From contig CAVUKB010000010.1 in NCBI GenBank assembly GCA_963741955.1, positions 480,001-544,000 of the forward strand: a stretch of 64,000 nt of DNA, written 5' to 3'. The stretch comes from an uncultured Acidobacteriota bacterium. GTDB lineage: Bacteria > Acidobacteriota > Thermoanaerobaculia > Gp7-AA8. Shown piece after piece: positions 2,504-64,000 of this stretch. The position numbers and the translations under genes are program-made. Position 1 is the stretch's first letter. Every line of letters begins with the position of its first letter. The notes under the pieces were generated by a model. It was given only the letters and a program-made list of their open reading frames with translations. It was not told where the DNA came from and did no database searches.

Positions 2504-2526
2504 GGTCCCGCCGGCGAAAGGGTGCC

Positions 2527-3062: not shown

Positions 3063-3243
3063 GTTGGCGGCGCAACGAGATCGAGCCTTTCCCGGATCCC
3101 GTCTTCGGTGCGGCGCGAGACATCGAAGACCTTCATTCCCGCTCTCACCGACTGGCTGTTCCGCATCATCGTCGCGGTCGAAGTCGACGCCCCGCGCGAG
3201 ATCGAGTTTGGTCACCACGGCGGCGTCGGTGGTGTTGAACGAT
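3063..3243 (-). pseudogene. hypB: Frameshifted C-terminal remnant of HypB-like Ni GTPase
   Basis: Manual translation FNTTDAAVVTKLDLARGVDFDRD / frameshift / MMRNSQSVRAGMKVFDVSRRTEDGIRERLDL resembles the HypB C-terminus (G4 TKxD, G5 VS-x-x-TG region); no N-terminal half. Confidence 0.65.
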
Positions 3244-3282
3244 CAATTCTCGGGTCGGGAGAGCGGAGACGCTCGCGAGACG

Positions 3283-3747: not shown

Positions 3748-3784
3748 CGGCGGCCGAGGATAGCAGAACCCGGCCGGGAGCGGC

Positions 3785-4342: not shown

Positions 4343-4446
4343 GCTTGCCTCCAATCCGTGCAGAAGTGTCCCGTCGGGCGAGCGGCGGGAATCGCAAAGA
4401 ACCGAGCGAGCAGCGTGCCAGGGGGAAACCTGATCGTTCCGATCGT

Positions 4447-42132: not shown

Positions 42133-42318
42133 AAGTCCTCCCAAAGTTATTCGGATCGGGAGGAAAGCAAGATCGCGGCCCGACTGATCGTTGGGTCCGC
42201 GTATCTTTTTTGAGTTGTTCCGGCCGAGGTCGCGGGCCGGGAGTTTGCGCGGCAGAAATGTCGAGCGCTCGAGGGCATCGCGGTGACGTTCCCGCCCGCA
42301 ATCCGCAGCCCAACAGCC

Positions 42319-44776: not shown

Positions 44777-47254
44777 GCCGGGCTCACCGCCCCTCGCATT
44801 TTCCAGACGCCTGCGGAGCGGGAACGCGATGGTCGCCAGCACCGCCGCAGCCGCGAAGAATGGCGCGGGAACGATTCCCCCCGTGAGCGCTGCGAGGGAG
44901 AGCGCGATCACGTTGAAGATGATCGCCAGCCGGATCCGCTTCCGGATCGAGCCGATCATCGCACGGGCGGTCTCGCAGATCTCGGCGAGGATTCCCGGCT
45001 CTTCGCCGGTGATGATCATGTCCGCGTCGAGATTCGATGCCGCCGGGCCGAATGCGATCCCGAGATCGGTCGCAGCGAGAAACTGAAGATCTCGAGGATC
45101 GGCGCTGACGCCGGCAACCGGCGACTCGCGCCGGAGAGACGTCGCGATCTCGATCCGTCGTCCGGACGATGCGGCGGCGGTGAAGGCGGCGATCCCTGCT
45201 GCGGATGCAATCGCACCCGCAGTCGCCACGTCTTCACCGGAGAGAATACGCGGTTCGAATCCGAGGGCTTCGATCCGGTGCATCGCGGCGGGAGCCGCGG
45301 GACGGGCGGCGTCCGACACGACGATCAGCCCCGACAGCTGCTGCTCGATGGCGATGCCGATCGTGTTCTTCCCCGCTGCCGTGAAGCCGGCGAGCTCTTC
45401 GGAGATTCCGCTGACGTCGATCCCCTCGGCGGCGAGAAATTCAATCCGGCCGACCCGCACCGTCCGTCCGTCGACCACCGAACGCACTCCTTTTCCTTCG
45501 CTGCCGTGGTAATCCCGGCGCTCGGCACCCGCCGCGACCGCGTTCCCTCGTGACGCGATCGCTCGCGCGACCGGATGATCGGCATTCTCTGCCGCAGCGG
45601 AAGCGACGCGGAGAAGCTCGCTCTGGCTGATGCCGCCGAGAAGCACGTACTCGGTGACGCGAGGATTCCCTCCCGTGATCACGCCACGCGGGCGCAGCAG
45701 GAGAGCCTGGACGCGACCGAGCACGTCGTAGCAGCTCGCGCTGCGCGCGTACACTCCGATCTCCGTCCCACGGCGGAGTGCCGCGTCGTGAAATGCTGCC
45801 GAAACGAGTGAGACTGCACGCGGCGCCACCGCGACGAGGACCGCGGCGAACGCGGCGATGGCATACGACCACGGATGCGCCGGTGTGAGGATCGCCCATC
45901 CGGCAAGTGCAGCCGGCGCCAGCAGCGCCGTTGCCACCATCAACGCACGCGACGCCTTCATCTCCGCCGGGCCGACGGGGCGTGAGAGCACCGCCGCCAT
46001 TCGTTTGTGCATCGTCTCGTTCGCCGCCGCCGTAACGCGTACTCGCAGTGTTCCTTCGACGATCCGGCAACCGGAGAAGAGCGGGTCACCGGTCGACTTC
46101 GAGACGGCGTTCGGCTCGCCGGCCGTCATCTCTTCGACACGCGCTTCCCCCTCCACCACCGTCCCGTCGATCCACGCCTGGTCACCTTTGCGCAGCTCGA
46201 CGACGTCGTCCGTCGAGATCTCCGCAGCGGGAACCTCGACGACACGATCTCCTTTCACCAGGCGCGTCTCGCCGCCGTCGAGCTTCGCGAACCGATTGCT
46301 CCAGGAAGCTGCGCGCTGCCGCGCCGTCGTGTCGGCCCTCACTGCAATCAGCCACACCAGTACCAGCCACGAAGCGGTGACATAGTGCAGCCCGGTCACG
46401 ACTCCCGCGTCTGGCGCGAGGAGCGAAACGAAGGTTTGGGCCATCGAGGCCAGCAGCAGAGTCGCAACCGACACGGTGTACAGCAATCCGGCGGAGATCC
46501 GCCCTCTCCGCAGTGACGCCCATCCTACGATCGCAGCGTCCTTCATCAGCCATCCGAGGAGGAGAGCGATCGCGATCAGGGCGCCGCCCGCGACTCCCGC
46601 GCGAAGAAGTCCGAGCGAAGGCCAGGACGAGAGTGCCGCCGTTCGGATCCAGGCGTATGCGGCTCCGGAATCGCCGAATGTCGCGAGCGACACTTCGAGC
46701 AGAGTCGCACCGCCGGCTGCGAGGAACGCGAGGATGATCGCGCCCCACCCGATTCCGCTCCGGACTTTCTGTTCTTTGTCGACTGCGGCGTAGCCCGATC
46801 TCCGGATTGCGGCGTGAATCGCCTGGATGTCGGTCTGAACCGGATCGTACTCGACGAGGATCTCGTCGCGGAGAAGGTCGATCTCGACCGCGCTGACACC
46901 GTGGAGCGATTCGATCGACCGCCGGATGGAAAGAGCGTCGGGAGCGTCGAAGGAGACGCCGCGGAGGTGAAGGCGAGTCCTTGATCGGCCGGGATCGAAT
47001 CCGGCCGATTCGATCAGCGGCAGGAGTGACGGGAGGGCTTTTTCATCGTCCAGAGAAAGGGTCGCCTGCTGCTGGAAGAGGCTGACCCGGATGGACCGGA
47101 CTCCCGGTTCGCTCCCCAGTCTCGTCTCGAGCCGGCGCGCGCAGCACTGGCAATCGAGGCCTGGAAGCGAGAGGGTGAGCGTGACGGCCTTGGCTCCGGA
47201 GTCGTTCGCTCGAGGATCAGTCTGCCTGTGCATGTCAGCGCTGGTGCTTCGCAT
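44768..47254 (-). CDS. Heavy-metal P1B-type ATPase homolog with degenerate catalytic motifs
   Basis: HMA GLDCQCC, TM/A/N/P domain order, HP and GKGV retained; DKTGT, CPC and GDGxND absent; start 47254 or 47233. Confidence 0.8.
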   Translation of the reverse strand: MRSTSADMHRQTDPRANDSGAKAVTLTLSLPGLDCQCCARRLETRLGSEPGVRSIRVSLFQQQATLSLDDEKALPSLLPLIESAGFDPGRSRTRLHLRGVSFDAPDALSIRRSIESLHGVSAVEIDLLRDEILVEYDPVQTDIQAIHAAIRRSGYAAVDKEQKVRSGIGWGAIILAFLAAGGATLLEVSLATFGDSGAAYAWIRTAALSSWPSLGLLRAGVAGGALIAIALLLGWLMKDAAIVGWASLRRGRISAGLLYTVSVATLLLASMAQTFVSLLAPDAGVVTGLHYVTASWLVLVWLIAVRADTTARQRAASWSNRFAKLDGGETRLVKGDRVVEVPAAEISTDDVVELRKGDQAWIDGTVVEGEARVEEMTAGEPNAVSKSTGDPLFSGCRIVEGTLRVRVTAAANETMHKRMAAVLSRPVGPAEMKASRALMVATALLAPAALAGWAILTPAHPWSYAIAAFAAVLVAVAPRAVSLVSAAFHDAALRRGTEIGVYARSASCYDVLGRVQALLLRPRGVITGGNPRVTEYVLLGGISQSELLRVASAAAENADHPVARAIASRGNAVAAGAERRDYHGSEGKGVRSVVDGRTVRVGRIEFLAAEGIDVSGISEELAGFTAAGKNTIGIAIEQQLSGLIVVSDAARPAAPAAMHRIEALGFEPRILSGEDVATAGAIASAAGIAAFTAAASSGRRIEIATSLRRESPVAGVSADPRDLQFLAATDLGIAFGPAASNLDADMIITGEEPGILAEICETARAMIGSIRKRIRLAIIFNVIALSLAALTGGIVPAPFFAAAAVLATIAFPLRRRLENARGGEPGSA

Positions 47255-47346
47255 TCAACCACGACCTGATGTTATTTGTGGCATTTGTCTAGCACCGTTT
47301 TCTCCAGAGCACGAAGTCGTGTGCCCGGCCGTGGAGGGAGGATTAA

Positions 47347-47559
47347 ATGCGAATAGAAGAGACAAATCAAATTCTGAAAGATGCGAAGCAGCGGGGACAT
47401 TCCGTCCACGAGCAGAAGGGAACGGGAGCGCGGTTTTCCGAGGCGCTCCACAACCGTGGCGTGCAATCGGCTCTGACGGTGGCAGGTGTCGCTGCGGTGG
47501 TCGGACTCGGAAGCTGGTTGGCGCGATCGCGACGACCGCGACCCTGGTACGAGATCTGA
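47347..47559 (+). CDS. Small protein with a C-terminal membrane anchor
   Basis: RBS GGAGG; 70 aa ending ALTVAGVAAVVGLGSWLARSRR. Confidence 0.6.
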   Translation: MRIEETNQILKDAKQRGHSVHEQKGTGARFSEALHNRGVQSALTVAGVAAVVGLGSWLARSRRPRPWYEI

Positions 47560-47593
47560 CGGACGGCGAAGGACCACTCGCGGCCTCGGCGTG

Positions 47594-48904
47594 TCATGGC
47601 TCTCCGCTCCTCCTGGTGACCAGAACCCACCTCACTCTGTACCGCTCACCTTCGAGGACTTCGAGGGTCAGATCGCCGAGGTCGACCCGATCCCCGGGGG
47701 AGACCTCGCGTCCCAGTGTGGCCGCGACATATCCACCGATCGTTTCTTCGGGAGGCTCGCCGACGTCGATCTTGAGCCGGTCCGCCAGATCTTCGATCAG
47801 GTAGTCGCCGCGGATCCGGTAGCGGCCCTCGCCGAGACGCTCGACCTCGAGCCTCTCACGATCGAATTCGTCCTGAATCTGCCCGAAGAGCTCTTCGGTG
47901 ATGTTCTCCATCGAAACGATGCCGGATGCACCGCCATACTCGTCGAGGATCACCGCGAGATGGGTCCGGTGGTCGAGGAACTGGTGGAGGAGGTTCTCGA
48001 CCGTGGTGTTCTCCGGAACGAAGAGCGCCTCCCTCTTGAGGTCCATCAGCGTGCGACCCGGACCTTTGAGCTGGGCAAGAAAGAGGTCCTTCACGTGGAT
48101 GATCCCGACGACGTGATCGAGGTCGCCGTTGCAGAGTGGATAGCGGGTATGTCCGGTTTTGAGAATGGTGTCGAGATTCTCTTCGATGCTTCGGGTGACC
48201 GAGAGTATCACCACGTCCGTCCGCGGAACCATGATCTGACGCGCCGTCCGTCGCGAGAACTGGAAGACGCCTTCAATGATCTCGAGGTTCGGCTCGGAGA
48301 GGATTCCCGCCTGTTCCGAATGGGCCAGGATCAGGCGCAGCTCTTCCTGCGAATGAGCCACTTCGGCCTCACTTGCCGGGCGGATCCCGATCGTTCGGAG
48401 GACGAGATTGGAGAAACTGTTCAGGACGAAGATCGCGGGATACATCACGACGTAGAAGGCGTGGAGTGGGTGAGCGATCCAGAGGGCGGAGCTCACTGGT
48501 TTCTGGATTGCGAGGGACTTCGGTGCGAGCTCGCCGAACACGATATGGAGCACGGTGATGATCAGGAACGCGACTGACGCTGCGATGGAGTGAGCGACCG
48601 GGACGGCGAACGCTCCGAGCCGGACGAACCACGGCACGAGGAGGGAGGCGAACGCCGGTTCACCGATCCAGCCGAGAGCCAGGGATGCGAGCGTGATTCC
48701 GAGCTGGGTGGCCGAGAGATAGACATCCAGACGGCGGGTCAGGCGGAGTGCCATCTTCGCACGGGGGTCGTTCTTCGCCGCGAGCTCTGTGAGCTGCGTC
48801 GGCCGAACCTTCACGATCGCGAATTCGGCGGCGACGAAATAACCGTTGGCCAGGACGAAGAAAAAGGCCAGGACGAGATACCAGGCGCTCATTGGAGAGG
48901 CCAT
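47594..48904 (-). CDS. CNNM/CBS/CorC (TlyC-like) membrane protein
   Basis: NGYFVAAEFA, LSATQLGITLASLALGWIGEP, GELAPK, IMVPR, DEYGG. Confidence 0.94.
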   Translation of the reverse strand: MASPMSAWYLVLAFFFVLANGYFVAAEFAIVKVRPTQLTELAAKNDPRAKMALRLTRRLDVYLSATQLGITLASLALGWIGEPAFASLLVPWFVRLGAFAVPVAHSIAASVAFLIITVLHIVFGELAPKSLAIQKPVSSALWIAHPLHAFYVVMYPAIFVLNSFSNLVLRTIGIRPASEAEVAHSQEELRLILAHSEQAGILSEPNLEIIEGVFQFSRRTARQIMVPRTDVVILSVTRSIEENLDTILKTGHTRYPLCNGDLDHVVGIIHVKDLFLAQLKGPGRTLMDLKREALFVPENTTVENLLHQFLDHRTHLAVILDEYGGASGIVSMENITEELFGQIQDEFDRERLEVERLGEGRYRIRGDYLIEDLADRLKIDVGEPPEETIGGYVAATLGREVSPGDRVDLGDLTLEVLEGERYRVRWVLVTRRSGEP

Positions 48905-48938
48905 TGTAACGGGTTGCGCGGGTTTGGAGGTTCAGGCC

Positions 48939-50213
48939 TCAGCTGACCTGACTCCCCCTGATCTCATCCAGCGTTCGCCAGAACCGCGGATACGATTTCG
49001 ACACTACCTGATCGTGGTCGATGGTCACGTTACCGCGCGCGAGGCCGGAGATCGCGAACGCCATGGCGATTCGATGATCTTCGTGCGGGTCGATGGTGGC
49101 GGGGTCGTCGTTCCATCCCGGCTCGATCCGGAGGGAATCGGCTCCTTCGACGACGGTCACGCCGAGCTTCCGAAGCTCGGACGCGATCACGGCGATCCGG
49201 TCCGATTCCTTGATCCGCAGATTCGCGATATTCACGATCTCGACCGGAGAGGAGGCGAGAGGGGCAATCGCCGCGAGGGTCGGAACGACATCCGGGATGT
49301 CGCCGAGGTCGAATCGTCCGCCCTTCAGCGGCGACTTCGATTGCACGGTGACGACGGTTCCTTCGCGGCTGACCGCGACGCCCATGCTCTGGAGGAGGTC
49401 GAGAAACCGCCGGTCGCCCTGCGCGGAATCGGCGCGGAGGCCGGACACACGTACGGTCCCACCGGTCGCGATCGCGGCTGCGAACCAGTACGAAGCCGAC
49501 GAGTAGTCGCCTTCGACTTCGTAGTGGTTGCACTGAAGGCGGGAAGGTTCGACACGGTAATGGTCGGAAGCGATCTCTCGCACCGTCGCACCGAAATCGC
49601 GGAGGATGCGCGCGGTGATCTCGAGATACGGGCGGGAAACGAGAGAGCGGAGGCGGAGATCGAGCCCGTCCGGCAGAGCGGCACCCGCCATCATCAGCGC
49701 GGAAGCGAACTGGCTCGAGAGCCCTGCGTCGAGGACGACCTCGAAACCACCACGCATCTTCCTTCCGCGGATTCGTAGCGGCGGGAACCCTTCCTCACCC
49801 GCGTACTCCAGCTCCGTTCCGATCGAGACGAGAGCGTCCACGAGCCCTCCGATCGGCCGCTGGAGCATCCGCGACTCACCAGTGATCAGATATCGCCCGG
49901 GAGTGAACGCGAGAAACCCGGTCAGAAATCTCATCGCGGTACCGGCGTTCCCGACGAAGATCTCGACCTCGTTGGCAGACATGCTGATGCGTTCTCCGAT
50001 CGTGATCGCGTCGCGAAACGATCCGGAGACCTCGAAACCGGCTTTCCGGATCGCCTCGAGCATGTAGCGCGGATCGTCGCCATCGAGCGGATGCACCACG
50101 GTGGTCGGCCCCTCCGTCATCGCCGCCAGGAGCAGTGCCCGGGCGGTGACCGATTTCGACGGCGGAGCGGCGACGTCAGCATCGAGTGGAGAAGTGCGTT
50201 CGATCTTTTTCAT
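48939..50213 (-). CDS. aroA: 3-phosphoshikimate 1-carboxyvinyltransferase (EPSP synthase)
   Basis: PPSKSVTAR, GNAGTAMRF, SSQFASAL, LRIKESDR, DHRIAMAF, VSKSYPRF. Confidence 0.96.
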   Translation of the reverse strand: MKKIERTSPLDADVAAPPSKSVTARALLLAAMTEGPTTVVHPLDGDDPRYMLEAIRKAGFEVSGSFRDAITIGERISMSANEVEIFVGNAGTAMRFLTGFLAFTPGRYLITGESRMLQRPIGGLVDALVSIGTELEYAGEEGFPPLRIRGRKMRGGFEVVLDAGLSSQFASALMMAGAALPDGLDLRLRSLVSRPYLEITARILRDFGATVREIASDHYRVEPSRLQCNHYEVEGDYSSASYWFAAAIATGGTVRVSGLRADSAQGDRRFLDLLQSMGVAVSREGTVVTVQSKSPLKGGRFDLGDIPDVVPTLAAIAPLASSPVEIVNIANLRIKESDRIAVIASELRKLGVTVVEGADSLRIEPGWNDDPATIDPHEDHRIAMAFAISGLARGNVTIDHDQVVSKSYPRFWRTLDEIRGSQVS

Positions 50214-50977
50214 GGAAGCTCGAGTGTGAGACCGTCCCAGGCGAGACCAAAGCCGTCCGGGAGCGTGGCGTCGACGGTCTGATGGTCGACGTCGTGTGCG
50301 ATGTGGATGAGCCAGGTCTGGCGTGCGTTCACCACTCGCGCCTGTTCGACGGCTTCCGGAATGGTGAAGTGCGTCGGGTGGTGCGGACGGACCCGAAGTC
50401 CGTCAATGGCGAGCGTATCAATCCCGTCGAGAAGCGCGAGCGACGAATCAGGAATCCCGTTGGTGTCGGTGATGTAGGCGAAGGAACCGATCCGGTACCC
50501 GAGGATGGTCCAGTCGCCGTGACGCACCGGGATCGGAACGACCTCGATCCCTTCATGTGCGAACGGCTGCTCCACCTCGTTCAGGATGAGCTTCGGTTTT
50601 CCTCCTCCTTCCTGCGCCCGTTCATCCCAGATGTACGAGAATGCGCGACGGATGGCTTTGGCCGTCAGTGGACTGGCGTACGCGGTCATCGGTTTGCGAT
50701 GGAAGAAGTTGAAAGGCCGGATGTCGTCCAGCCCCATGATGTGGTCGGAATGGGAGTGGGTAAAGAGGATGAAATCGAGGTGCGGAATCGGATCGCGGAG
50801 GAGCTGGATGCGGAGATCCGGAGTGGTGTCGATGAGGATGTGCCGGCCGCCGATCTCGATCTTCAGCGATTGGCGGAGGCGCTGATTCTTCGGGTCTTTC
50901 GACGTGCAGACGTCGCAGTGGCAGCCGACCACCGGCACGCCCGTCGAGGTTCCGGTACCGAGAAAAGTGACTTTCAT
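50210..50977 (-). CDS. MBL-fold metallo-hydrolase (PhnP-like)
   Basis: LGTGTSTGVP..GCHCDVC, THSHSDH, AYITD, HPTH. Confidence 0.92.
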   Translation of the reverse strand: MKVTFLGTGTSTGVPVVGCHCDVCTSKDPKNQRLRQSLKIEIGGRHILIDTTPDLRIQLLRDPIPHLDFILFTHSHSDHIMGLDDIRPFNFFHRKPMTAYASPLTAKAIRRAFSYIWDERAQEGGGKPKLILNEVEQPFAHEGIEVVPIPVRHGDWTILGYRIGSFAYITDTNGIPDSSLALLDGIDTLAIDGLRVRPHHPTHFTIPEAVEQARVVNARQTWLIHIAHDVDHQTVDATLPDGFGLAWDGLTLELP

Positions 50978-50983
50978 TCCTGA

Positions 50984-51709
50984 TCAGACGATGTAGTAGG
51001 AGTATTCGCCGCTCTCCGGCGAGATGACCATTGCTTCACCCTGCTCGAACCACGCCGGGAGCACTTCGACCGTAGCGTTCCCCGCGGGGAGTGTCAACTT
51101 GCGGTGGAAGTGACCGAAGACGACGACATCGACGTTCTCTTTCTCCTGGCGTGCACATCCATATGCCTCCATCAGCTCGACGGGAAGGCGTCGCTTGTGC
51201 TTGAAGTTCGTCTTCGAGAGCTTCTGTTCGACCGAGTCGACGAAACGACGAGCGAGAGGCTTCGGTACCAGGCGAACCGCGAAACGCATGAACGCGTTCT
51301 TGGACACCGCGCGCCAGAAACGATACGGCCAGTCGCGGTCGTTGATCATGTCGCCGTGGACGATGAGAAACCGCTTTCCGCCCGCTTCGATCACTCTGCG
51401 AACGACGACCTCCGAGACCTGCGGCTCGGCTTCAGATCCTTTCACGAAGAAGTCGCGGTTCCCCTCGACGTAGTAGATCTCGATTCCGCGGTCGCGAAGC
51501 TCGCCGAGCTTGCGGAAAAAATTGCGAACGGGCGTGGTGTAGAACTTCGGATCTCCGATGAAATAGTGAAACACGTCGCCGTTGAGGTAGAGCGCCTTCG
51601 GGGCAAGCGCCGCGAGACGCTCCAGCCACTCCACGATCTCGCGCTCGTCTCCCTCGGCCAGACCGATGTGCGAGTCGCCGATCACGAAGATCCATCCGGC
51701 GGGAGGCAT
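50984..51709 (-). CDS. lpxH: UDP-2,3-diacylglucosamine diphosphatase-like metallophosphoesterase
   Basis: GDSHIG, NGDVF, EGNRDF, HGD, GHFH. Confidence 0.8.
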   Translation of the reverse strand: MPPAGWIFVIGDSHIGLAEGDEREIVEWLERLAALAPKALYLNGDVFHYFIGDPKFYTTPVRNFFRKLGELRDRGIEIYYVEGNRDFFVKGSEAEPQVSEVVVRRVIEAGGKRFLIVHGDMINDRDWPYRFWRAVSKNAFMRFAVRLVPKPLARRFVDSVEQKLSKTNFKHKRRLPVELMEAYGCARQEKENVDVVVFGHFHRKLTLPAGNATVEVLPAWFEQGEAMVISPESGEYSYYIV

Positions 51710-52215
51710 CACTGAGTCAGCTCCTCCAGCGCGCGTTGGAATTCGCGCAGTGCGTCGTGTCCGTAGAGACAGAAGACGACCCGTTCGAGATGGTGAGCGC
51801 GAGGGCGGAACGTCAGCGTCGTATCGAGCATGATCCGAGCGCATCGGGAGATCGGATATCCGAAGATCCCGGTGGAGATCGCGGGAAATGCGACCGAGGA
51901 GAGCTGGAGCTCCTCCGCTTTTTCCAGCGAGGAAAGAGTTGCGCGCCGGAGCTTGTCGTCTTCGTCGCCTTCCCCCATCCGAGGACCGACGGCGTGGATC
52001 ACGAACCTGGCCGGGAGATGTCCGGCGGAAGTGACCGCTGCTCCCCCGACCGGCACGAATCCGATGCGGTCGCTCTCCTGCTGGATCGCCGGGCCCCCTT
52101 TCCGGGAGATCGCTCCGGCGACGCCTCCACCGTGCTGAAGTTGCGAGTTCGCGGGGTTGACGATCGCGTCGACGTGGAGGGTGGTGATGTCGCCCTCCAT
52201 GAGCTCGATCTTCAT
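51709..52215 (-). CDS. Macro-domain protein (YmdB-like ADP-ribose hydrolase)
   Basis: [42 protein letters not shown]. Confidence 0.93.
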
Positions 52216-52217
52216 GC

Positions 52218-53258
52218 TCAGAGGCTCACTTTCAGGTTCGCCCGTGGGTTCTCCGGGTAGCATTGATCGATCCGATCCACCGCATCGGCGGCATCGGCGT
52301 TCAACGATTTCGGGATGGCGATCTGAACCCGGTAGTAATGATCGCCGCGCGCGCCCTTCCCCTTCTTCACGCCCTTGCCCGAGAGGCGGAATGTCTGTCC
52401 GCCCTGCGTTCCCGCGGGGATCTTTGCCCGGACCGGACCGTGGATGGTCGGGACCTCGATCTCCGCCCCGTGCACGGCTTCGCCGATGGTGATGGGAAGC
52501 TCGACGTGAATGTCGTCGCCCCGCCGCTCGAAGAAGGGATGCGGTCGGACGTGGATCAGCACGATCAGGTCGCCGGGAGGCGCACCGGCACTTCCGGCCG
52601 AACCCTTCCCTCGAAGGCGGATTCGCTGGCCATCGCGAACGCCTTCAGGGATTTTAGCTCTCACTGTTTCGCGGTGCGCCACCACCCCCGATCCGTGGCA
52701 GGTGGGGCAGACCTTACTGTTCACATTTCCGAGTCCCTCGCACGTGGGGCACTCCTTCTGGCGCTGGATTGCGAGCTGGACCGTGGTTCCGTGGACGGCG
52801 TCACGAAAGTCGATCGTGGTCGACGCTTCGATGTCGGTTCCGGCGCGGGGAGCATTCTCGAACGGCTGCCTTCCGCCGAACAGATCGGAGAAGAGATCCG
52901 TGAAATCGGCCGTGCTCGCGGTCCGGCGTCCTCCGCGGCGTCCGCCGCCTCCGGTGAATTGCGAGAAGTCGAAGTTGAAACCGTACGGCCCCTGTCCGGC
53001 GCCCTGGCCGCCGAACGGACCTCCGGGGCCGAAGTGGAAGGCCTCCCGACCCATCCGGTCGTACTGCTCGCGTTTTTCCTTGTCGCCGAGGATCGCGTAA
53101 GCCTCGCTGATCTCCTTGAAACTGGCTTCTGCTTCCTTATTGTCGGGATTCACGTCGGGGTGGTACTTGCGGGCGAGCTTTCGATAGGCTTTCTTGATCT
53201 CATCCTCGGATGCGTCTTTTTTCACTCCGAGGATGTCGTAGTAGCTTCGATCAGCCAT
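52218..53258 (-). CDS. dnaJ: DnaJ-family co-chaperone with a shortened zinc finger
   Basis: YYDILGV, HPD, G/F-rich linker, two CxxCxGxG motifs, C-terminal DnaJ domains. Confidence 0.9.
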
Positions 53259-53479
53259 GGCGCAGATTAGAACACAATTTTCGGGCCGAATATTGACGAG
53301 AAGGGCGGGTGAGCCCATGTCTTGCATAACGGCTACAGGGTTGGTGGAGTCATCGGCCCGTCGCTCTCGATGCACGATTCCGGCCCGCTCGGGTCAGGTC
53401 TTCATCTTTTTCTCGTGCAGACCGGCCAATGCGCTTACGATGGAAATCCGATTGAAATTCGACGAGACGGGTGGACGCA

Positions 53480-54763
53480 ATGCAGGGAGCACTGGCGCGT
53501 AGAAATGTTCTGACCATGATCCTCGCCGGAGGCATGGGTGAGAGGCTCTATCCCCTCACCCGGGACCGCGCCAAGCCCGCCGTCCCGTTCGGAGGGCGAT
53601 ACCGGATCATCGATTTCGTTCTGAACAACTTCATCAACTCCGGCTTTTTCAAGATCAAAGTGCTCACCCAGTTCAAATCGAACTCGCTCATCGAGCACGT
53701 CACGCGCACCTGGCGTCTGCCGTCCGAGATCGGACAGTACGTCGAAGTCGTTCCCGCTCAGATGAGAAAAGGGCCGTTCTGGTTCCGCGGAACGGCCGAC
53801 GCGGTGTACCAGAACCTCGAGCTGATCTTCGACGAGAATCCGGAGTACGTGTGTGTCTTCGGCGGCGATCACATCTACAAGATGGACGTGAACCAGATGC
53901 TCGAGTTTCACGTCGACATGAACGCGGACCTGACCATCGCTACCGTACCGGTCCACATTTCACAGGCGCACCATTTCGGGATCGTGGAGATCGACGAACG
54001 CTTCCGGGTCACCGGGTTCGTCGAAAAACCGAAGCATGGCGCGAAGACGATTCCCGGCCGGCCGGACACGGTCCTCGCATCGATGGGGAATTACATCTTC
54101 ACATCCAAGGTGATGACCGACGTTCTGGAGCGCAATGCACTGCGCGACGCCGCGCACGATTTCGGGAAGGAGATCATTCCGCAGATGTACGACGGGATGG
54201 ATGTCTACGCCTACGACTTCGGGACCAACATGGTTCCCGGCGAGACGCCGGAGTCGCATGCCTACTGGCGCGATGTCGGGACCGTCGAGTCGTACTTCGA
54301 GGCGTCGATGGATCTGATTGCGGTGACGCCGCCCTTCAGCCTCTACAACTCGCGATGGCCGTTCAAGACGGCACCGCTGAATCTTCCTCCCGCGAAATTC
54401 GTTTTCGCGGACGCCGAGCAGAGACGGATCGGCATCGCTACCGATTCGCTGGTCTCGTCCGGGGCGATCATTTCGGGAGGAAGCATCAACCGCACCATCG
54501 TCTTTCCCCGCGTACGCATCAATTCCTTCGCGGACGTCGACGAATCGATCCTGATGGACGGAGTCGACGTCGGACGGCACTCCCGCATCCGGCGGGCGAT
54601 CGTCGACAAGGGCGTTCACATCCCGCCGCACAGCGTGATCGGCTACGATCTCGAGCTCGACCGGCAGCGGTTCACGGTGACCGACAGCGACATCGTCGTG
54701 GTTGCGAAAGGGACGGTGATCCAGCCTGAGACCGTCATGGCGGGCGCCGACCCCTCGAACTGA
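53480..54763 (+). CDS. glgC: Glucose-1-phosphate adenylyltransferase
   Basis: ILAGGMGERLYPLTRDRAKPAVPFGG, GTADAVYQN, GDHIYKMD, SMGNY, YWRDVGT. Confidence 0.97.
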   Translation: MQGALARRNVLTMILAGGMGERLYPLTRDRAKPAVPFGGRYRIIDFVLNNFINSGFFKIKVLTQFKSNSLIEHVTRTWRLPSEIGQYVEVVPAQMRKGPFWFRGTADAVYQNLELIFDENPEYVCVFGGDHIYKMDVNQMLEFHVDMNADLTIATVPVHISQAHHFGIVEIDERFRVTGFVEKPKHGAKTIPGRPDTVLASMGNYIFTSKVMTDVLERNALRDAAHDFGKEIIPQMYDGMDVYAYDFGTNMVPGETPESHAYWRDVGTVESYFEASMDLIAVTPPFSLYNSRWPFKTAPLNLPPAKFVFADAEQRRIGIATDSLVSSGAIISGGSINRTIVFPRVRINSFADVDESILMDGVDVGRHSRIRRAIVDKGVHIPPHSVIGYDLELDRQRFTVTDSDIVVVAKGTVIQPETVMAGADPSN

Positions 54764-54844
54764 TAGAATGCGGCGCCGCTGCGCGCGCCGGCCGAGCCGA
54801 CCTGCCGCACGAACGCGGACTCTCCAGACGAAGGACGTACTCCG

Positions 54845-55627
54845 ATGAGCACCAGAATGCGACACGACGGCCGCGCGGCCGACCAGCTCCGCCCCGTAAT
54901 CGTGCGGCCCGATTTCATCAGACACGCTGAGGGCTCGGTTCTGATCGAAGTGGGCGACACTCGCGTGGTCTGCACCGCGTCGCTCGAGGAGCGGGTCCCT
55001 CCCTTCCTCCAGAAGAGCGGGAAAGGATGGGTCACCGCGGAGTACGGAATGCTACCGCGCTCGACCTCGGAGCGTTCCGCGCGTGAGGCCGCACGTGGGA
55101 AGCAGGGCGGCCGGACGATGGAAATTCAGCGCCTGATCGGCCGGGCACTGCGTGCGGCCGTCGACACCCAGCTGATGGGTGAGCGGACGATCTGGGTCGA
55201 CTGCGACGTCATCCAGGCGGACGGCGGAACACGGACCGCCTCCATCACCGGCGGGTTCGTCGCCCTGACCCTCGCTCTCGCGAAGCTCTACCTCGAGAAG
55301 CGCATCGTGAGCTGGCCGGTCCGGGAATGGGTCGCGGCAGTGTCGGTGGGAATGGTCGATGGAGTCCCGTCACTCGATCTCGACTACATCGAGGATTCCG
55401 GTGCCGAGGTCGACATGAACGTCGTCGCGACCGACAAGATGAGGTTCGTCGAGATCCAGGGAACCGCAGAGGGAAAGAGTTTCAGCGAGGACGAGATGAA
55501 TGCCATGACCGCTCTCGCGAAGAGCGGCATCTCGCAGCTGATCGAGAAGCAGCGGGAGATCCTCGGGCCGGTGATCCAGAAGGTCGACGCACTGGCGCTC
55601 GAGCGGCTCAACAAGAAATTCCGCTAG
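54845..55627 (+). CDS. rph: Ribonuclease PH
   Basis: [47 protein letters not shown]. Confidence 0.97.
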
Positions 55628-55755
55628 CCCGCAGGAAAGAGTCCTCGAGCGGCGCCGCTTCCGTCGTGCCGCTCGATGTGCCCGGTTCGGAAGAAACGGG
55701 AGAGTCGCCGGAAGGCAAACGGTGGGTTCCTGCGATTGCCTGATGCCCTTCGCGA

Positions 55756-55922
55756 CTAGGAGTCTGCGCGATAGGAACGTCCGTAGCGAGAAAGCGAAGC
55801 AGCGAGGCCAAATTCGATCGGATTTGAGGTGCGTAGCGGTGGCTACTCGCCGAGAATCCGGACGAATTTGGACCGCTGATCCGCTTTCGCAGTAGGACAG
55901 TTTCTACCGCGCAGACTCCTAG
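55756..55922. mobile_element. 167-bp CTAG-bounded palindromic MITE-like element, family A (second copy)
   Basis: Same length as, and near-identical to, 32834..33000. Confidence 0.88.
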
Positions 55923-56103
55923 CCCGCATTTCTCACATCGTCTCTGCTGCGGAGACGGATGGCGGCCTGTCTGCTGCGTTGCGCCCGGCTTCGGCTCCTC
56001 GACGTAGTCACCACTATGCCTTCGTCGCCGAAGCGAGGCGCGCCTTGCATCCAGGCCACTCTCCGCCTCCTCGCGACGAGATGGTGTGAGAAATGCGGGC
56101 TAG
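55919..56103. mobile_element. 185-bp CTAG-bounded palindromic MITE-like element, family B (full copy)
   Basis: CTAGCCCGCATTTCTCACA...TGTGAGAAATGCGGGCTAG terminal inverted repeats; shares its left CTAG with the family A copy. Confidence 0.85.
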
Positions 56104-56122
56104 ATTTCGCGAACAATCCCGG

Positions 56123-56869
56123 TTACTCGATCATCCCGTTCAGCGGACTCGACGCAGTGGCGTAGAGCTTCTTCTCGATCCGGCCGGCCCGGTACGCGAG
56201 ACGCCCCGCCTGGATTGCGTAATTCATCGCGCGCGACATCGCGATCGGGTCCTTCGCTCCTGCGATTCCGGTGTTCATCAGCACCGCATCTGCACCGAGC
56301 TCCATCGCCAGGGCCGCGTCCGACGCCGTTCCGACGCCGGCGTCGACGATCACCGGGACCTTCGAGAACTCACGGATGATCCGAATGTTGGTCGGATTGC
56401 GAATTCCCAGACCCGATCCGATCGGTGCAGCGAGAGGCATCACCGCGGCACAGCCGAGGTCCTCGAGTTTCCGGCAGGTGATCGGGTCGTCGCTGGTGTA
56501 CGGAAGAACCGTGAAGCCCTCTTTCAGCAGGGTCTCGGCGGCCTCGAGGAGCGCGACGTTGTCCGGAAAGAGCGTCTTCGGGTCGCCGATCACTTCGAGC
56601 TTCACCCAATCGGAGAGGCCGACCTCCCGTGCGAGACGCGCGTAGCGCACCGCCTCGGCAGCGGTGTAGCAGCCGGCGGTATTCGGAAGGACGAGGTACT
56701 TCTTCGGGTCGATGTAGTCGAACAGGCGCGGCTGGTTCGGATCGGCCACTGACGTGCGACGTACCGCGACCGTCACGATCTCTGCACCGGAGATCTCGAT
56801 CGCCTCCGCCATCTGTTCCATGGTGGCGTACTTGCCGGTGCCGACGAGGAGACGCGAGCGAAACGTCTT
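56123..56869 (-). CDS. thiG: Thiazole synthase, 5'-truncated at the junction
   Basis: [53 protein letters not shown]; no native start codon, in-frame stop just beyond the junction. Confidence 0.93.
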
Positions 56870-57428
56870 TGACCACCTCGACCCCGATCACCAGCTGTGC
56901 TGCGCGCACGCGCTGCGCGAACTGCAAGCCGTTACCGACACCGCCCCGACCGGGCACTGGTGCTGGGCCACCCAAGCCGCCGACGCCCTCGCCGCGATCC
57001 AGAAGCTGATCGCCGACGCCCGCGCCGCGACCGCCGACGTCGACCCCGCCGCGCTGGCCGCGCAGATCCAGCACTACCGCTGCGCCGCACAGATCGGCGC
57101 CAACCAGAACGCCGCCCGCACCGACAAGCTGATGAAGAAACACCACGCGCTGGCCCGCCGGCTGCTCGACCGCCAAGACCTGACTACCTGCGCTTCACCA
57201 AAGACTGGCGAATACCGCCGGACAACAACGGCTCCGAACGCGACATCCGGATGATCAAACTCCGGCAGAAGGTATCCGGCTGCCTACGCACCCTCACCGG
57301 CGCGAAGCAATTCTGCGCGATCCGCAGCTACCTATCCACCGCCGCCAAACACGGCCATACCTCATTCGACGCACTCGTCACGCTCGCCGAAGGTCAAGCG
57401 TGGATGCCGGCATGACCTGACCAGTTAC
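56870..57428 (+). mobile_element. IS66-family transposase, 3' half only, frameshifted, with right end
   Basis: HQLCCAHALRELQAV; frameshift at ~57180; YLRFT..PPDNNGSERDIRMIKLRQKVSG; ends CTGACCAGTTAC (GTAA-type terminus). Confidence 0.85.
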
Positions 57429-57463
57429 TTCCGACTATCGACGAAGGCGAAATACGACGACCC

Positions 57464-58009
57464 TGTGGGGCTCAATAACCTCGTCTCGGTCTTCTCGGAG
57501 CGTTCGGCATGATCATTTGGTGTTGTTGTCGATGGTGTATGCCGTTGTGCGGGCGGTGCTTGGCCTGGTCGCCGTTCGGGGTCGTAGTCGTGCGGTCAAG
57601 GATGTCGAACTGCTGGTGTTGCGGCATGAGGTAGCGGTGTTGCCTCGCCAGATCAGTCGTCCGCGATTGGAGCCGACAGATCGAGTGCTGCTGGCGGCAC
57701 TGTCGCGGCTGCTGCCTCGGCAGTCGTGGTCGAGCCGGATCGTCAGCCCGGCAACATTGGTGGGTTGGCATGGCGAACTGGTCGCGCGGCGGTGGACGTA
57801 TCCGAGAGTTCACGCCTCGGCAGGTGGTCGACGCCCGATCGCAGTTGTGATCCGGACGTTGGTCGCGGCTTGCGCGAGAGAATCCGACGTGGGGTCATCG
57901 CCGGATCCATGGCGAGCCGATCGGGCTCGGTTACCGTGTCGCGCCCTCGACGGTATGGAACATCCTGCGCCGGGCCGGTCTTGACCCAGCGCCTCGACGA
58001 ACGGGATCT
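57464..58009 (+). mobile_element. Left portion of an integrase-core (IS481/IS3-like) actinobacterial-type IS, degenerate
   Basis: Left end TGTGGGGCTCAATAACC; KDVELLVLRHEVAVL..RPRL..DRVLLAALSRLLPR..PATL.GWH; frameshifted and cut by the next element. Confidence 0.75.
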
Positions 58010-59186
58010 TGTGGGGCTCAAGAACCTCGGTGTGGGCGTCTTGGCGGGGGTCGGCGTGATCATTCGAGTGTTCTTGTCCGTCGTGTGCTTGGCCCTGCGG
58101 ACGCTGCTTGGCCTTCTGCTGATACGACGCCGCGACCGGATGGTGAACGACGTCGAGCTGCTAGTGCTGCGGCAGGAGGTAGCGGTGCTGCGTCGCCAAG
58201 TCACTCGTCCGCGGTTGGAGCCGAAAGATCGGTTGGTGTTGGCGGCGCTGGCTCGTCTGCTCCCGCGGCAGCTGCGGAGGACCCGGATTGTCGCGCCGGC
58301 GACACCGCTGCGGTGGCATCGCGGACTCGTTGCTCGCGCTGGACGTACCCGAGGAGAACAGCTGCGGTCGGCGGTCGACCACGCACCTGCGACGTTATCC
58401 GGGGCCTGGTGGTTCGGCTTGCACGGGAGAACCCGACCTGGGGTCACCGCCGCATCCACGGCGAGCTGGTCGGGCTCGGCTACCGGGTGGCCCGTGCGAC
58501 GGTGTGGAACATCCTCCATGAGGCAGGGCTGGATCCGGCGCCGCGACGGTCAGGGCCGACATGGCGGGAGTTTTGCCGCGCGCAAGCCCAGACGATGCTG
58601 GCGTGCGACTTCTTCACCGTCGACTCTGTGCTGCTGCCGAATCTACGTGTTCGTGGTGCTCGAGGTCGGCTCGCGCCGCGTCCACATCCTCGGGGTCACC
58701 AGGCATCCGACGGGTGACTGGTGACCTAGCAGGCACGCAACTTCCTCATGTCGCTGGGGGAGCGGACCGACGCCTTCCGGTTCCTGATCCGCGACCGCGA
58801 TACCAGGTTTACTGCCAGCTTCGACGCGGTGTTCGCCGGCGCACGCATCGCGGTCCTGCGCAGCCCACCGCGAGCTGCGAAGGCGAACGCCTCCGCCGAA
58901 CGGTGGGTCAGCCCCATCCGCCGCGACTGCCTGGACCGGATGCTGATCTTCCACCAGCTACAGCTTCTGCGTGTGCTGGCCCAATACGAGACGCACGACA
59001 CCAGCCATCGACCGCACCGAGCCCCACTAGTGGCCGCTGATCGCCGCCGCCGTCGGCGTTTCTGATCGAGGCGGCAGCACCGCGGTTCGGCGAACCGAGG
59101 TGCTCGGCGGCCTGAGCAACGAATACCGCCACGCCGCATGACCCCGGTCGCCCACATTGACAGCACTGAGGTTCTTGAGCCCCACA
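58010..59186 (+). mobile_element. 1177-bp integrase-core IS (IS481/IS3-like) with a pseudogenised transposase
   Basis: 19-bp perfect terminal inverted repeats TGTGGGGCTCAAGAACCTC; fragments LARENPTWGHRRIHGEL, ACDFFTVD, FLIRDRDTRF, AERWV spread across frames. Confidence 0.88.
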
Positions 59187-59202
59187 AGCCCATTTCGCCG
59201 GC

Positions 59203-59674
59203 CTAGGCACGCAGCGGAACCTGGCTGCCTTCTGGTGGCGTGCCGTAGGAGGCCCAGAGGCTGTTCAGCGACATCTGGTAGTAGAGGGAGTGCAGTCCGA
59301 GAATGAAGGCAAGGATCAGTCCGATCCACGGGTTGCATTGATCCAGTGATGATCCCGCAGCGGCTTGTGCCCGCCGGATCTGCGTCGCCTGTCTTCCACG
59401 CTGAGACGTATGGCGGAACCAGGATGATGGCTCCGGGAAAGAGGGCGAGAACTGCGACGCCAGGAGAGACCTCGATGCGCTGGTCGATGTCCCGGACCTC
59501 CCTGTTGATCTTGTACCACCACACAAGGTGATAGATGCCAAGTGTGATAAGCGGCCATACGAGCCATACCAGGAAGGGATTGCGGTGTTTACCGATCAAG
59601 CCCACTCCACCAGAGCCCGGCGGAGTGGGTGGCCCTCCCGGCGGTGTCGGCGGATAAGCCGGTGGCGTCGACAT
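59203..59674 (-). pseudogene. DUF4234-like membrane protein, copy 1, frameshifted
   Basis: Pro-rich N-terminus, GKHRNP..VWLVWPLITLGIYHLVWWYKINREV; frame changes after KTGD. Confidence 0.7.
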
Positions 59675-59806
59675 CTATCGTTTCCCCCATGCCTGAGTGA
59701 ACCGTCCCGGATTTCGCGCCGTCTTTGTTGGCGGCACCGGACGGTGAGCCGGTCTGTTGAGCGTAGTAGGCCTGCTCGACACACCACACCCGAGGAGTTC
59801 GAGAGC

Positions 59807-60275
59807 CTAGGCACGCAGCGGAACCTAGCTGCCTTCTGGTGGCGTGCCGTAGGAGGCCCAGAGGCTGTTCAGCGACATCTGGTAGTAGAGGGAGTGCAGT
59901 CAGAGAATGAAGGCCAGGATCAGTCCGATCCACGGGTTGCATTGATCCGGTGATCCCGCAGCGGCTTGAGCCCGCCGGATGCGATCGCCTGTCTTCCACG
60001 CTGAGATGTAGGGCGGAACCAGGATGATGGCTCCGGGAAAGAAGGGCAAGAACTGCGACGCCAGGAGAGACCTCGATGCGCTGGTCGAAGTCCCGGACCT
60101 CCCTGTTGATCTTGTACCACCACACAAGGTGATAGATGCCAAGTGTGATGAGCGGCCATACGAGCCATACCAGGAAGGGATTGCGGTGTTTACCGATCAA
60201 GCCCACTCCACCAGAGCCCGGCGGAGTGGGTGGCCCTCCCGGCGGTGTCGGTGGATGAGCCGGTGGCGTCGACAT
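59807..60275 (-). pseudogene. DUF4234-like membrane protein, copy 2, frameshifted
   Basis: Near-identical to copy 1; frameshift after VAVLAL. Confidence 0.7.
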
Positions 60276-60298
60276 CTATCGTTTCCCCCATGCCTGAG

Positions 60299-60580
60299 TG
60301 AACCGCCCGGATTTCGCGCCGTCTTCTTGTTGGCGGCACCGGACGGTGAGCCGGTCTGTTGAGCGTAGTAGGCCTGTTCGAACTCCTCGGGTGTGGTGTG
60401 TCGAGCAGGCTGTGCAGTCGCTGGTTGTCCAACCAGTCGACGTAGTTCGTCCGGGCTTCGACGTCGGCGAGGCTGCGCAGCGGGTCGGTGCGAAACGTGA
60501 TCGGGGAGCGACGGCCTCGCTCTTGAACGGTCCGATTAGCGACTCGGCGACGGCGTTGTCCCATGTCGTCGACTACTCCT
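60299..60580 (-). mobile_element. IS3-family (IS6110-like) 3' remnant with right inverted repeat
   Basis: End TGAACCGCCCGGATTT (also at 59698); residual PLRSLADVE..VDW..NQRLHSLL and EQAYYAQQ. Confidence 0.7.
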
Positions 60581-60599
60581 GATCGCGATGGTGAGCCCC

Positions 60600-60700
60600 G
60601 CTCTGTTGGGGTGACGCATCCGTTGCATCCGTGACGCGTCGCCGCCGTGGTCGGCTTCGGTCCTGTTGTTCGGGTACCGCTCGGTCGTGTCACGAAGGCC
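60600..60700 (-). pseudogene. Short IS6-family transposase fragment
   Basis: TERYPNNRTEADHG...MQRMR resembles the IS6 motif Y.NNR.E.DH...R.MRG. Confidence 0.5.
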
Positions 60701-60743
60701 CGGCGAACCGACATTCCGCGCGGCCCGCTTACGCTGCCACGCC

Positions 60744-62267
60744 ATGGAGTCATTCCCTGCGACGGTCACGTTGGATGTGCATATCGGTGCTCGGTCACCT
60801 GCATGGTGGGATGAGACGGAAGCCCAGGGGGCCGCCGCCATGGGTGATCATGCGCCGCTGGGCTTGGCGGACCCGCGCAATCGCCCCGCGATAACGCTCG
60901 AACCGATCAATTGGGACGAGCTTGGTTTCACGCCGCGCTGGCTGGGTGACGACTCAAGCGAGGCGGTCACAGCGATCGAACCCAGCATCTTCGCCGGTCA
61001 CGGGGCGCAGGAGTGGGAGCGTTTCGTGGAAGCCTCGCAGCGTCGACGCGAACTGGCGCTGGCCATATCGACCGTTGGCAGTCCACACGAGCCCGAAATC
61101 CAGTCTGGCTTGGCCAGCGGCGCTGCCAGCGTGCAGCTGCCGGGCACACGGTTGAGCAGCATCGGCGGTCATCGAGTCTCCCTGGCCTCACGGCCTGAGG
61201 CGGCCGAAGACTTGGGCCCCGCAGATCGCGATCTCGCGCTGCGACTGGCGGACACGCGCCCCACCGATCTGCCGTGGTGGCGGTTGACGCTGTCCGGAGC
61301 AACGTTGGAGGCTGCCTTCCAGCAGTCCGAAGTCGTGCCTGCGCAGGGCACGTTGACACCGCTGCTCCGTGGCCGCGCCGGCGAGGTCGTGGCAGCAATC
61401 TGGACGTCAGACGACGGCACGATCCGTCACTACGTGCTGCCGTACCTGCCGAAGTACGAGCCGGTGCTGGATTGGCTCGCGCGGCGAGGCTTGCCTGTGT
61501 TCAATCCAGCGGCGGCGCGACGCACGCGCACGTCACTGGCCACCGAACCTAAGCTGCAGACACCTGCGGAAACAACCGCCCGCGCGCGACTCGCCGAGCT
61601 GGAGACCGACTACCAGCGGCAGCGCGCGATAATCGAGGCTGAGTTGACCGCTGCTGTGAGCGCCGCCGACGAGGTACGCGACCCACTGCTGTACGGCAAG
61701 GACAAAGTGCTCGAGGACGCGGTCTCACGTGTGCTGAGGGACGCCGGCATGGAAGCGCGCAGTGTCGACGAGATGCTTTCCGCGACGGTCAACGCGGATC
61801 TGTTCGCCACATGGGCAGGCAATTCCGTGCTCGTCGAGGTCAAGGGAACGTCGGGTAACGCCCCGGAGAATCTGGCTGAGCCCGCGCGCCGGCACCTCAC
61901 TACGTGGCCCCAGCTGCGCCCGGACCTAACAGTCCGCGGCGTGGTGTTGATCGTGAATCACCAGGCGCGTACCCAACCGCTCGACCGGACACCTGCGCCG
62001 TTCAACCGCCGCGAGTTCGTTGAGTCGCTTACCTTCCCGGTGCTCAGCACGAGGCAGCTGTACGACTGGTGGCGCCGCGGCGAACACGCCGAGATCCGAT
62101 CCGCGTTGTTCGGCGACGCGGCACGGTCGACTGCCAATCAAGTGCCGCGGCCTGATGCCCAGCAGCGCGCGGACGGCGCTGGTCGCTCTGCGCCGGGCGA
62201 CCGTGCGCCCGCCCGGCGCAAGGGCCTGCTGCGCCGGCTATTCGCTCGACGTGATGTCGCCAGGTAA
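60744..62267 (+). CDS. Hypothetical protein with a coiled coil and a C-terminal PD-(D/E)XK nuclease-like domain
   Basis: Uninterrupted ORF of ~500 aa; LEDAVSRVLRDAG...NADLFATWAGNSVLVEVKG; start uncertain (60744 or 60840). Confidence 0.65.
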   Translation: MESFPATVTLDVHIGARSPAWWDETEAQGAAAMGDHAPLGLADPRNRPAITLEPINWDELGFTPRWLGDDSSEAVTAIEPSIFAGHGAQEWERFVEASQRRRELALAISTVGSPHEPEIQSGLASGAASVQLPGTRLSSIGGHRVSLASRPEAAEDLGPADRDLALRLADTRPTDLPWWRLTLSGATLEAAFQQSEVVPAQGTLTPLLRGRAGEVVAAIWTSDDGTIRHYVLPYLPKYEPVLDWLARRGLPVFNPAAARRTRTSLATEPKLQTPAETTARARLAELETDYQRQRAIIEAELTAAVSAADEVRDPLLYGKDKVLEDAVSRVLRDAGMEARSVDEMLSATVNADLFATWAGNSVLVEVKGTSGNAPENLAEPARRHLTTWPQLRPDLTVRGVVLIVNHQARTQPLDRTPAPFNRREFVESLTFPVLSTRQLYDWWRRGEHAEIRSALFGDAARSTANQVPRPDAQQRADGAGRSAPGDRAPARRKGLLRRLFARRDVAR

Positions 62268-62599
62268 GAGATCGGGGGCAGCCAGCCGCCGCTGCCGTCA
62301 TACCAACGGCGAGGCACACAACCGCGGCCCTCGCGCCAGGCACCACCCACGTCCGCCATTTCGGCGGTTCCGCGGGCCTGGTGCACCGTGGGTGTAAACC
62401 GGCGCCGGCCGAACGCGGGTGGCGGGTTACCTCGCGGTTGATGACCGGCTCCGGCACCAGGACAGCGCTGGCTTGGTGCCACAGCGCGCGCCGGGCTCAC
62501 TTACGTGCGAACACGTCGTCCGCGGTCGGCCGGGTGCTATGCCTCCGCGAAGGCGACCTCCCGGCCCAACGCCCCGAGACAGCACCACCTGCGGTAACT

Positions 62600-62970
62600 C
62601 AGGCGGGTCGCTGCTCAACACCGCCCTGCTGACCACCGCGACCATCGATCATCTGGGCGGGCAGCATCCGCCGGGGCGTTTCGAGGTGCGACGGTTGCGG
62701 CCGAAGATCGTGCTGTCCACCAGCCCAGAGCAGCACGGCTTCGTCGACAACGACTGGATCGGTCACACCATCACGATCGGCGACCAAGTCCGCCTGCGGG
62801 TCACCAGACCCGCGGTGCGTGATGACCACCCTGCCGCGAGCAGACCTGCCAATAGACGCTGGCATCCTGCGCACCGCCGCCCAGCACAACCAGGTCAATC
62901 TCGGGGTCTACGCCGACGTCCTCGCCGGCGGACCATCCGCCGCAGTGACCCGGTCACCCTCGCCGGGTAA
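62600..62970 (+). pseudogene. MOSC-domain protein C-terminal fragment, frameshifted
   Basis: LLTTATIDHL..FEVRRLRPKIV..WIGHTITIG..LRVT / VMTTL..LGVYADV / TIRRSDPV. Confidence 0.7.
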
Positions 62971-63366
62971 GGCCGCAAGTCCTAGGAACCGTGACGAGGT
63001 CGTAGCGTAATCCGCAGATTCACCGGGGCCGACGAATGTCGGGAGGGAGTTGACGCTCGGGCACTGGGCCCTAATAGTGGTGCGCTCCCGCGTCCCGGTC
63101 TGGCGCGACTTGGGTGCATGAGCGGTGCCTGGTCGAGTGACGACGCTGTCGGAGACGTCCGGCCGAATGTCAACGGCTTGCCTCGACGGCTGATCCGGAT
63201 AACCTGAATCGGGCTTGCTGTGGCGGCTGCCGACTTACCGACTCGCAACCCATCGACAGATCGGCATCGAGAGATCGCCCGACTGGTGGGCAGCGGTCCC
63301 CGCGCAGCGCCAGTCAGCAGGAGGGTGTTATGCGGTCTACGCGGATGGTTGAGCTGGCACTAGGGG

Positions 63367-64000
63367 CAATGCCATTCAATTACGCGGCTGTGATTTCGAC
63401 GGTGGCTGGCCCGGGGTAGAGGATTTCTCGATGTTCCGGGCGTTTGATCGGGCGGTAGCAGGGGCCGTAGCGTTTGATGACGCGGGGGTAGGCGCGGTGT
63501 CGGCGTGGTCGGAGCGGGAATCGGAGGATCTCCTCGATGACGCGGCGGTGCCGGTCATTGGTCTGGTGAGGGGGGAAAGTCCGCGGAGCCATCGGCTTCG
63601 CGGCGGATGACCCGCAGAGATCGGATGAACGATAACCGGTCGGGGTCAATGTCGGCGTCGTGCGCGGCTTCGGTCATGAGGGTTCGGATGGCGTAGTGGG
63701 CGAGGAGTATTCCCCAGATTTCTTGGCGCACCATCTGCGGCGACTTCGACCGCAGCACTCGGGAATGTGCGATCTGGTGTGTCTCGATCTCATCCAGCGC
63801 GATCTCGAATTCCCAGCGTTGGTGGTACGCGGCGGCCAGGTCGGGTGCCAGCGCATCTTCCCAGTCGGTGATCGTCGTGATCAGCCGGTAGGGATCGCCG
63901 CTGTCACGGTCGGTGATCTGGTACTCGATGACGCGGACGAGGATCGCCTGGTTTGTCGCAGCCCGCCACCGTGCTTCGTTCAGCGTGGCTGGTGTGCTGA
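63367..64000 (-). mobile_element. IS4-family element (actinobacterial type); transposase C-terminus and right end, runs off the window
   Basis: VRVIEYQI, YRLITTI, YHQRWEFE, RVLRSKSPQMVRQEIWG, DPDRLSF (ORF ends at 63555); terminus CAATGCCATTCAATTA at 63367. Confidence 0.88.

Follow-up and report, generated by a model that had tools for sequence, protein, structure and literature searches.

As described in bioRxiv 10.1101/2025.04.22.649783, long-read metagenome assemblers yield chimeric contigs that contain sequence from multiple phyla, and these contigs are marked by shifts in GC content, coverage, and gene taxonomy. The preprint also describes contigs that follow a variant backed by few reads or by a single read. 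Contig C10 of the genome that we analyzed (G000, 5.44 Mb in 16 contigs) is similar to the multi-phylum chimeras in that preprint: it joins two phyla, with a sudden shift in GC content, coverage, and taxonomy. Unlike those chimeras, C10 has its true continuation in the same bin, on contig C1, and its foreign part is a 31-kb terminal overhang without a tRNA gene.

The window that we analyzed (64,000 nucleotides) is C10:480,001-544,000, out of a contig of 568,259 bp. An earlier note, made from the sequence alone, had described an abrupt junction at 56,860-56,890 and had suggested a chimeric assembly. The junction is there, and the exact break lies between positions 56,869 and 56,870 of the window (C10:536,869|536,870). 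It cuts two genes, thiG on the - strand and an IS66 transposase on the + strand. The join is blunt, with no shared repeat, no end of an insertion sequence (IS), no target duplication, and no evident microhomology (on the IS66 side, we compared to relatives from sequencing runs X2 and X4, not to the donor itself). We found no tRNA and no shared repeat at the join, and about 770 bp separate the join from the end of the nearest host repeat. We believe, with a probability of about 96%, that the junction is a cross-phylum assembly chimera, which is real in the file but not in the organism. The suggestion of a chimeric assembly holds up because another contig carries the alternative path with an intact thiG, because a contig from run X1 and the drop in depth agree, because the two sides belong to different phyla, and because the join is blunt.

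The thiG gene in the window (56,123-56,869, - strand; PF05690, E = 6e-113 in Pfam) comprises just codons 20-267. As the earlier note had seen, the first codons and the start are missing; the loss is exactly codons 1-19 of a 267-amino-acid protein, along with the ribosome-binding site. If the frame is extended upstream, it reaches a stop without a start codon before it. The genome has two matches to thiG, one on C10 and one on C1. Over 970 bp, window 55,900-56,869 and C1:1,577-2,546 are 100% identical, and they diverge exactly at the join, with the true continuation on C1. There, the full 267-amino-acid thiG lies at 1,800-2,603, with its ATG at 2,603 and a ribosome-binding site (GAAGGAG), and it is followed by radC, a sirtuin, and, from 4,411, a multi-copy IS. 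C1 continues for 511 kb with host-like composition.

Comparison to relatives also supports the copy on C1. It is full-length and 80-82% identical to ThiG (PF05690) from five genomes from the same family and one from the same order, while the window's copy is the same gene minus codons 1-19 and is neither a second gene nor a pseudogene. Residues 13-19, which C1 restores, are conserved in five relatives from the same family or order. Of 92 thiG alignments (including the unpublished genome G024), 90 have their start no later than residue 19. The other two come from the window itself and from a locus that begins at the end of its contig. Pfam matched both copies of thiG, while the ThiG model in NCBIfam matched neither. 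The full-length protein is present in NCBI, ENA, and Logan, and the 229-amino-acid truncated form is in NCBI and ENA only, where its contig is 568,259 bp long, just like C10. Judging from the assembled sequence, thiG is intact in this organism and the join does not disable thiamine synthesis. The note's fallback, a cross-phylum transfer that disables this pathway, is not supported, given the full-length thiG on C1, and biologically the join has no consequence. We did not find thiG adjacent to radC in relatives (the two were on separate contigs in 5 of 5 fragmented genomes), and none of the 6 loci from relatives had DNA similarity to the region upstream of thiG on C1. Elsewhere in the genome, there are three matches to the ThiS family, which could be ThiS or MoaD.

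On the host side, rph (RNase PH; 54,845-55,627, + strand) adjoins thiG in 3 of the 11 thiG loci from relatives that we examined. In loci L005, L008, and L009, glgC, rph, and thiG are linked; thiG is co-directional in two of them and, as in the window, convergent in the third. For naming the host, we set aside the search for thiG across genome contigs, which, with near relatives left out, gave a mixture of Acidobacteriota, Nitrospirota, and others at 61-73% identity among the matches listed. The ThiG or RNase PH proteins of four genomes from the same family are named Thermoanaerobaculia bacterium. The earlier note had also listed genes typical of diderms to the left of the join. A Pfam scan, which covered 21 of 51 candidate open reading frames, confirmed OmpW (41,476-42,144) and DUF481 (19,786-20,520); for the LpxH-like gene it supported just a calcineurin-like phosphoesterase.

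Between rph and thiG lies a dispersed host repeat of 167 bp (55,756-55,922), which is MITE-like, has inverted ends bounded by CTAG, and has 25 copies of this size. A 1,599-bp element at C1:1-1,599 (L015) has 12 copies, a transposase-like frame of 440 amino acids, and the same CTAG-bounded inverted ends, so these are likely a MITE and its autonomous IS. The head of C1 has the 1,599-bp element where C10 has the 167-bp repeat. On the rph side, the last letters of the X1 contig are of the C10 type (the 167-bp repeat), and the head of C1 (its first 1.58 kb) is itself doubtful. A second dispersed host repeat, an imperfect palindrome of about 180 bp with many copies across the genome, directly follows the stop codon of thiG (55,922-56,104).

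We also compared the locus to sequencing runs. Parts of 52,001-62,000 are present in seven soil runs, each with at most 48% of its words, and we compared four of them over 47,001-64,000. The run data are contigs and contig depths, not raw reads; rare variants are dropped, and the data show presence, not absence. To the left of the join, run X1 has long pieces with no differences from the window, at about 9-12x. Its depth is 9.1-11.8 in 14 bins across 47,001-54,938 and 0-1.1 in 12 bins from 57,207 onwards. The bin that contains the join has a depth of 4.34, which equals 10.7 x 230/567, or in other words zero to the right of the join. Record 8 of X1 (2,689 nt, depth 10.7) matches 56,075-56,869 without differences and then has 1,894 further letters that are not in the window. 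By counts of 31-mers, C1 has flanking repeats on either side of 1,752-4,440, an interval that is also 2,689 nt long, and C1 position 1,752 corresponds to window position 56,075. The length and both end positions of record 8 thus fit the C1 path, so most of the data appears to continue into another contig. X1 may be the window's own sample, in which case it is not independent.

Runs X2 and X4 show the reverse. They have less than 1x to the left of the join, and they have pieces of about 1 kb with about 99% identity between 59,800 and 62,900. Beyond 56,875 on the left, their copies of IS66 continue with letters that resemble a transposase and not thiG; these letters (His-Asp-Ala-Trp-Ala-Pro-Tyr-Asp-Thr) are presumably IS66 transposase sequence. 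In the three runs other than X1, the tail is present without the host side at similar depth. At the level of contig depth, then, coverage changes at the join as expected for a chimeric contig, from about 11x to about 0x in X1 and in the opposite direction in X2 and X4. Among the pieces listed for the four runs, none bridges the join.

The sequence immediately to the right of the join is the 3' part of an IS66 transposase (56,870-57,428, + strand; NF033517 and PF03050). The match starts at position 222 of 387 in NF033517 and at position 146 of 284 in PF03050, so roughly the last 40% of the transposase is present. At about 57,180, the frame is disrupted by 2 inserted nucleotides, as compared to a plasmid copy and to runs X2-X4. 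The fragment shares with the IS66 family the 3' part of the DDE transposase and a right terminal repeat (57,413-57,428) that begins with GTAA, and it is 81% identical to a copy on a plasmid from Candidatus Mycobacterium. IS66 elements make an 8-bp target duplication. An IS66 insertion would have both terminal repeats and this duplication, while the fragment lacks the left end, the 5' part of the transposase, and the duplication, and the break falls within the gene. The flanking 8 bp are not the same (AACGTCTT on one side vs. TTCCGACT on the other), and we found no second copy of the 16-mer terminal repeat, allowing up to 2 mismatches, in window 55,000-64,000 or in the 31-kb tail. The note had made these same points (a start in mid-protein, no left inverted repeat, no target duplication). 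We found no other copies of this IS66 in the genome.

The foreign tail starts at the join and occupies 31,390 bp up to the end of C10, 24 kb past the end of the window, with no return to host sequence. Aside from its internal repeats, it has just two matches to the rest of the genome, of 56 bp each. A genomic island would have two junctions, with the host sequence resuming, and often a tRNA or an attachment repeat; the tail has one junction and no tRNA gene. Beyond IS66, its first 7.1 kb (56,870-64,000) contains two degraded fragments of integrase-core transposases (57,464-59,065, + strand), which are 73% identical to each other, and a tandem pair of DUF4234 genes (59,201-60,381, - strand), which are 96% identical. 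The DUF4234 pair has a period of 604 bp, both genes are apparently frameshifted, and there is a 33-bp inverted repeat at about 59,770-59,802 and 60,378-60,410. At the edge of the window is the 3' part of an IS4 transposase (63,555-64,000, - strand), which continues past the window and is intact (413 amino acids). The exact sequence of this transposase (L001:7,555-8,796) is found on 10 contigs in the public collection.

Several comparisons link the tail to the Actinomycetota. All 69 of the plasmid records that match its first 7.1 kb are from genera that we take, from their names, to be Actinomycetota (the lineage was shown for one). For three further 8-kb pieces of the tail, the best-ranked plasmid rows are from actinomycetes. 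The wider plasmid lists for the distal tail include many Proteobacteria (for example, Ralstonia accounts for 137 of 759 and 104 of 168), though the 25 best rows of each list are from actinomycetes; the plasmid collection is not a fair classifier of lineage. The tail's TetR regulator is in the same 90%-identity cluster as a protein from Jatrophihabitantaceae. Among the 120 listed homologs of its MFS transporter, all four with an organism name are from Actinomycetota (79-89%). Across 40 related genomes, the first 7.1 kb has matches of 27-98 bp in 12 and nothing in 28. Overall, the taxonomy of the genes differs across the join, with Thermoanaerobaculia on the left and Actinomycetota on the right. 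The earlier note's impression of frameshifted, Actinomycetota-type IS on the right was sound: the IS66 is frameshifted, the integrase-core transposases are degraded, and the plasmid records agree.

Over 4.6 kb, the tail's chromosome-like genes share 91% identity with another metagenome contig (L096). Relative to L096, these 4.6 kb have one uncompensated frameshift in coding sequence and two compensating pairs, none of which are in the TetR or MFS genes. A tblastx comparison of L096 to the tail gave noise only. There is a second abrupt break within a gene at C10:562,788 (L002:10,788), where a rhamnogalacturonidase-like glycoside hydrolase is missing about 275 N-terminal codons that L096 has. 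The tail may itself be a patchwork, with a second chimeric join at this site, although a natural deletion in the donor would give the same picture. Also in the tail, L002:4,745-6,265 encodes part of a sensor kinase and a NarL-type response regulator in one frame of 506 amino acids, which is probably a frameshift fusion.

The composition of the DNA changes as well. The GC content of the tail is 67.7%, as compared to 62.9% for the rest of C10; within the window alone, the GC profile shows just a mild rise. By tetranucleotides, all five complete 5-kb windows from C10:540,001 onwards are outliers beyond the 95th percentile. In a Markov comparison of host and donor across 1,079 5-kb windows, the five with the most donor-like scores all lie in the tail. 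The cumulative minimum placed the change-point at 61,031, about 4 kb from the join; the mean shift, which we selected after the cumulative minimum missed the join, placed it at 56,869-56,871 in 12 of 12 settings. The mean-shift estimate carries two caveats: C1's 970-bp copy of thiG is part of its host model, and its donor model was built from loci that were found with a tail gene. We also considered the lack of dispersed host repeats in the tail as evidence, but we rejected this because 48 of 200 gaps between these repeats are longer than 31,390 bp. Of five signs of a chimeric contig, C10 shows four (taxonomy, coverage, composition, and an alternative contig); the fifth is read clipping.

If the junction is an assembly chimera, then the true chromosome would run from glgC through rph, the repeats, and thiG, and would continue along C1 from 2,547 (the start of thiG, radC, the sirtuin, and the IS). 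The assembler would instead have closed C10 with 31.4 kb of DNA that belongs to a soil actinomycete of low abundance. A plausible cause is that the assembler extended C10 through a single chimeric long molecule or very few of them, either because two fragments were ligated during library preparation or because a read was not split. We favor a chimeric molecule over a mis-join at a repeat because there is no repeat or microhomology at the join; going by the sequence, a repeat-driven mis-join seems less likely, as the nearest host repeat lies about 770 bp off and the genome contains this IS66 just once. Contigs of megabase size without N, together with redundant haplotigs, suggest that the platform was long reads.

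Could the insertion be real instead? A rare subpopulation of the host might have taken up at least 31 kb from an actinomycete, inserted into thiG by illegitimate (non-homologous) recombination, with C10 as that allele and C1 as the majority. The assembly does retain alternative haplotypes: C2 duplicates C1:317.8-326.5 kb at 99.9% identity, C12 duplicates part of C7, and the head of C1 and C10 differ at the repeat below thiG. Also, IS elements are abundant in the first 8 kb of the tail, and contig data cannot show that something is absent. We nevertheless consider this very unlikely, because an IS end, a target duplication, a tRNA, and a shared repeat are all lacking at the join, and 31,390 bp pass without a second junction to host DNA. 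Furthermore, X1 has a depth of about 0 on the tail, three other runs contain the tail without the host side at similar depth, and the similarity to L096 extends across chromosome-like genes. (If the insertion were real, then a minority lineage of thiazole auxotrophs would live beside prototrophic siblings, and a cross-phylum transfer would have been caught in the act, as a recent and unameliorated block with an efflux pump and several IS.)

Even less probable is that C10 is the true path and that the start of thiG on C1 is a mis-join or belongs to another strain. The first 1.58 kb of C1 does differ from C10 (an IS replaces the 167-bp repeat), and the X1 contig on the rph side does end with C10-type letters; but the X1 contig takes the C1 path through the join, with the same depth as the host flanks (10.7x), and C1 restores conserved residues 13-19 of ThiG and runs on for 511 kb with host-like composition. 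The least credible scenario is that IS66 itself made the join in vivo, by one-ended transposition or by an adjacent deletion. An IS66 fragment does adjoin the join, but joins that are made by transposases occur at the ends of elements. This one is inside the coding region of the transposase, 559 bp from the sole terminal repeat, which largely refutes the idea, and the genome has no other copy of this IS66.

If we are correct that C10 is chimeric, then a genome that is listed as 99.1% complete and 0.17% contaminated nonetheless holds 31.4 kb of Actinomycetota DNA, and the truncated 229-amino-acid ThiG in public protein sources comes from a chimeric contig. Features to the right of window position 56,870 or in C10:544,001-568,259, including a DHA2 efflux transporter near the end of C10, would belong to another organism and would reflect neither the biology of Acidobacteriota nor horizontal transfer. 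Because the true path (C1) is in the same bin, C10 is a clean test case for the detection of chimeras.

Elsewhere in the genome, several small contigs (C2, C12, C14, C15, and C11) duplicate parts of C1, C7, C5, C13, or one another at 97-99.98% identity; by this similarity, they are redundant haplotigs that were retained in the bin. Outside of the tail, the only region with a donor-like 5-kb window (score above 0) is C5:1,110,001-1,125,000. This region is also an outlier by tetranucleotides, and it is a candidate for an island or for a second foreign stretch.
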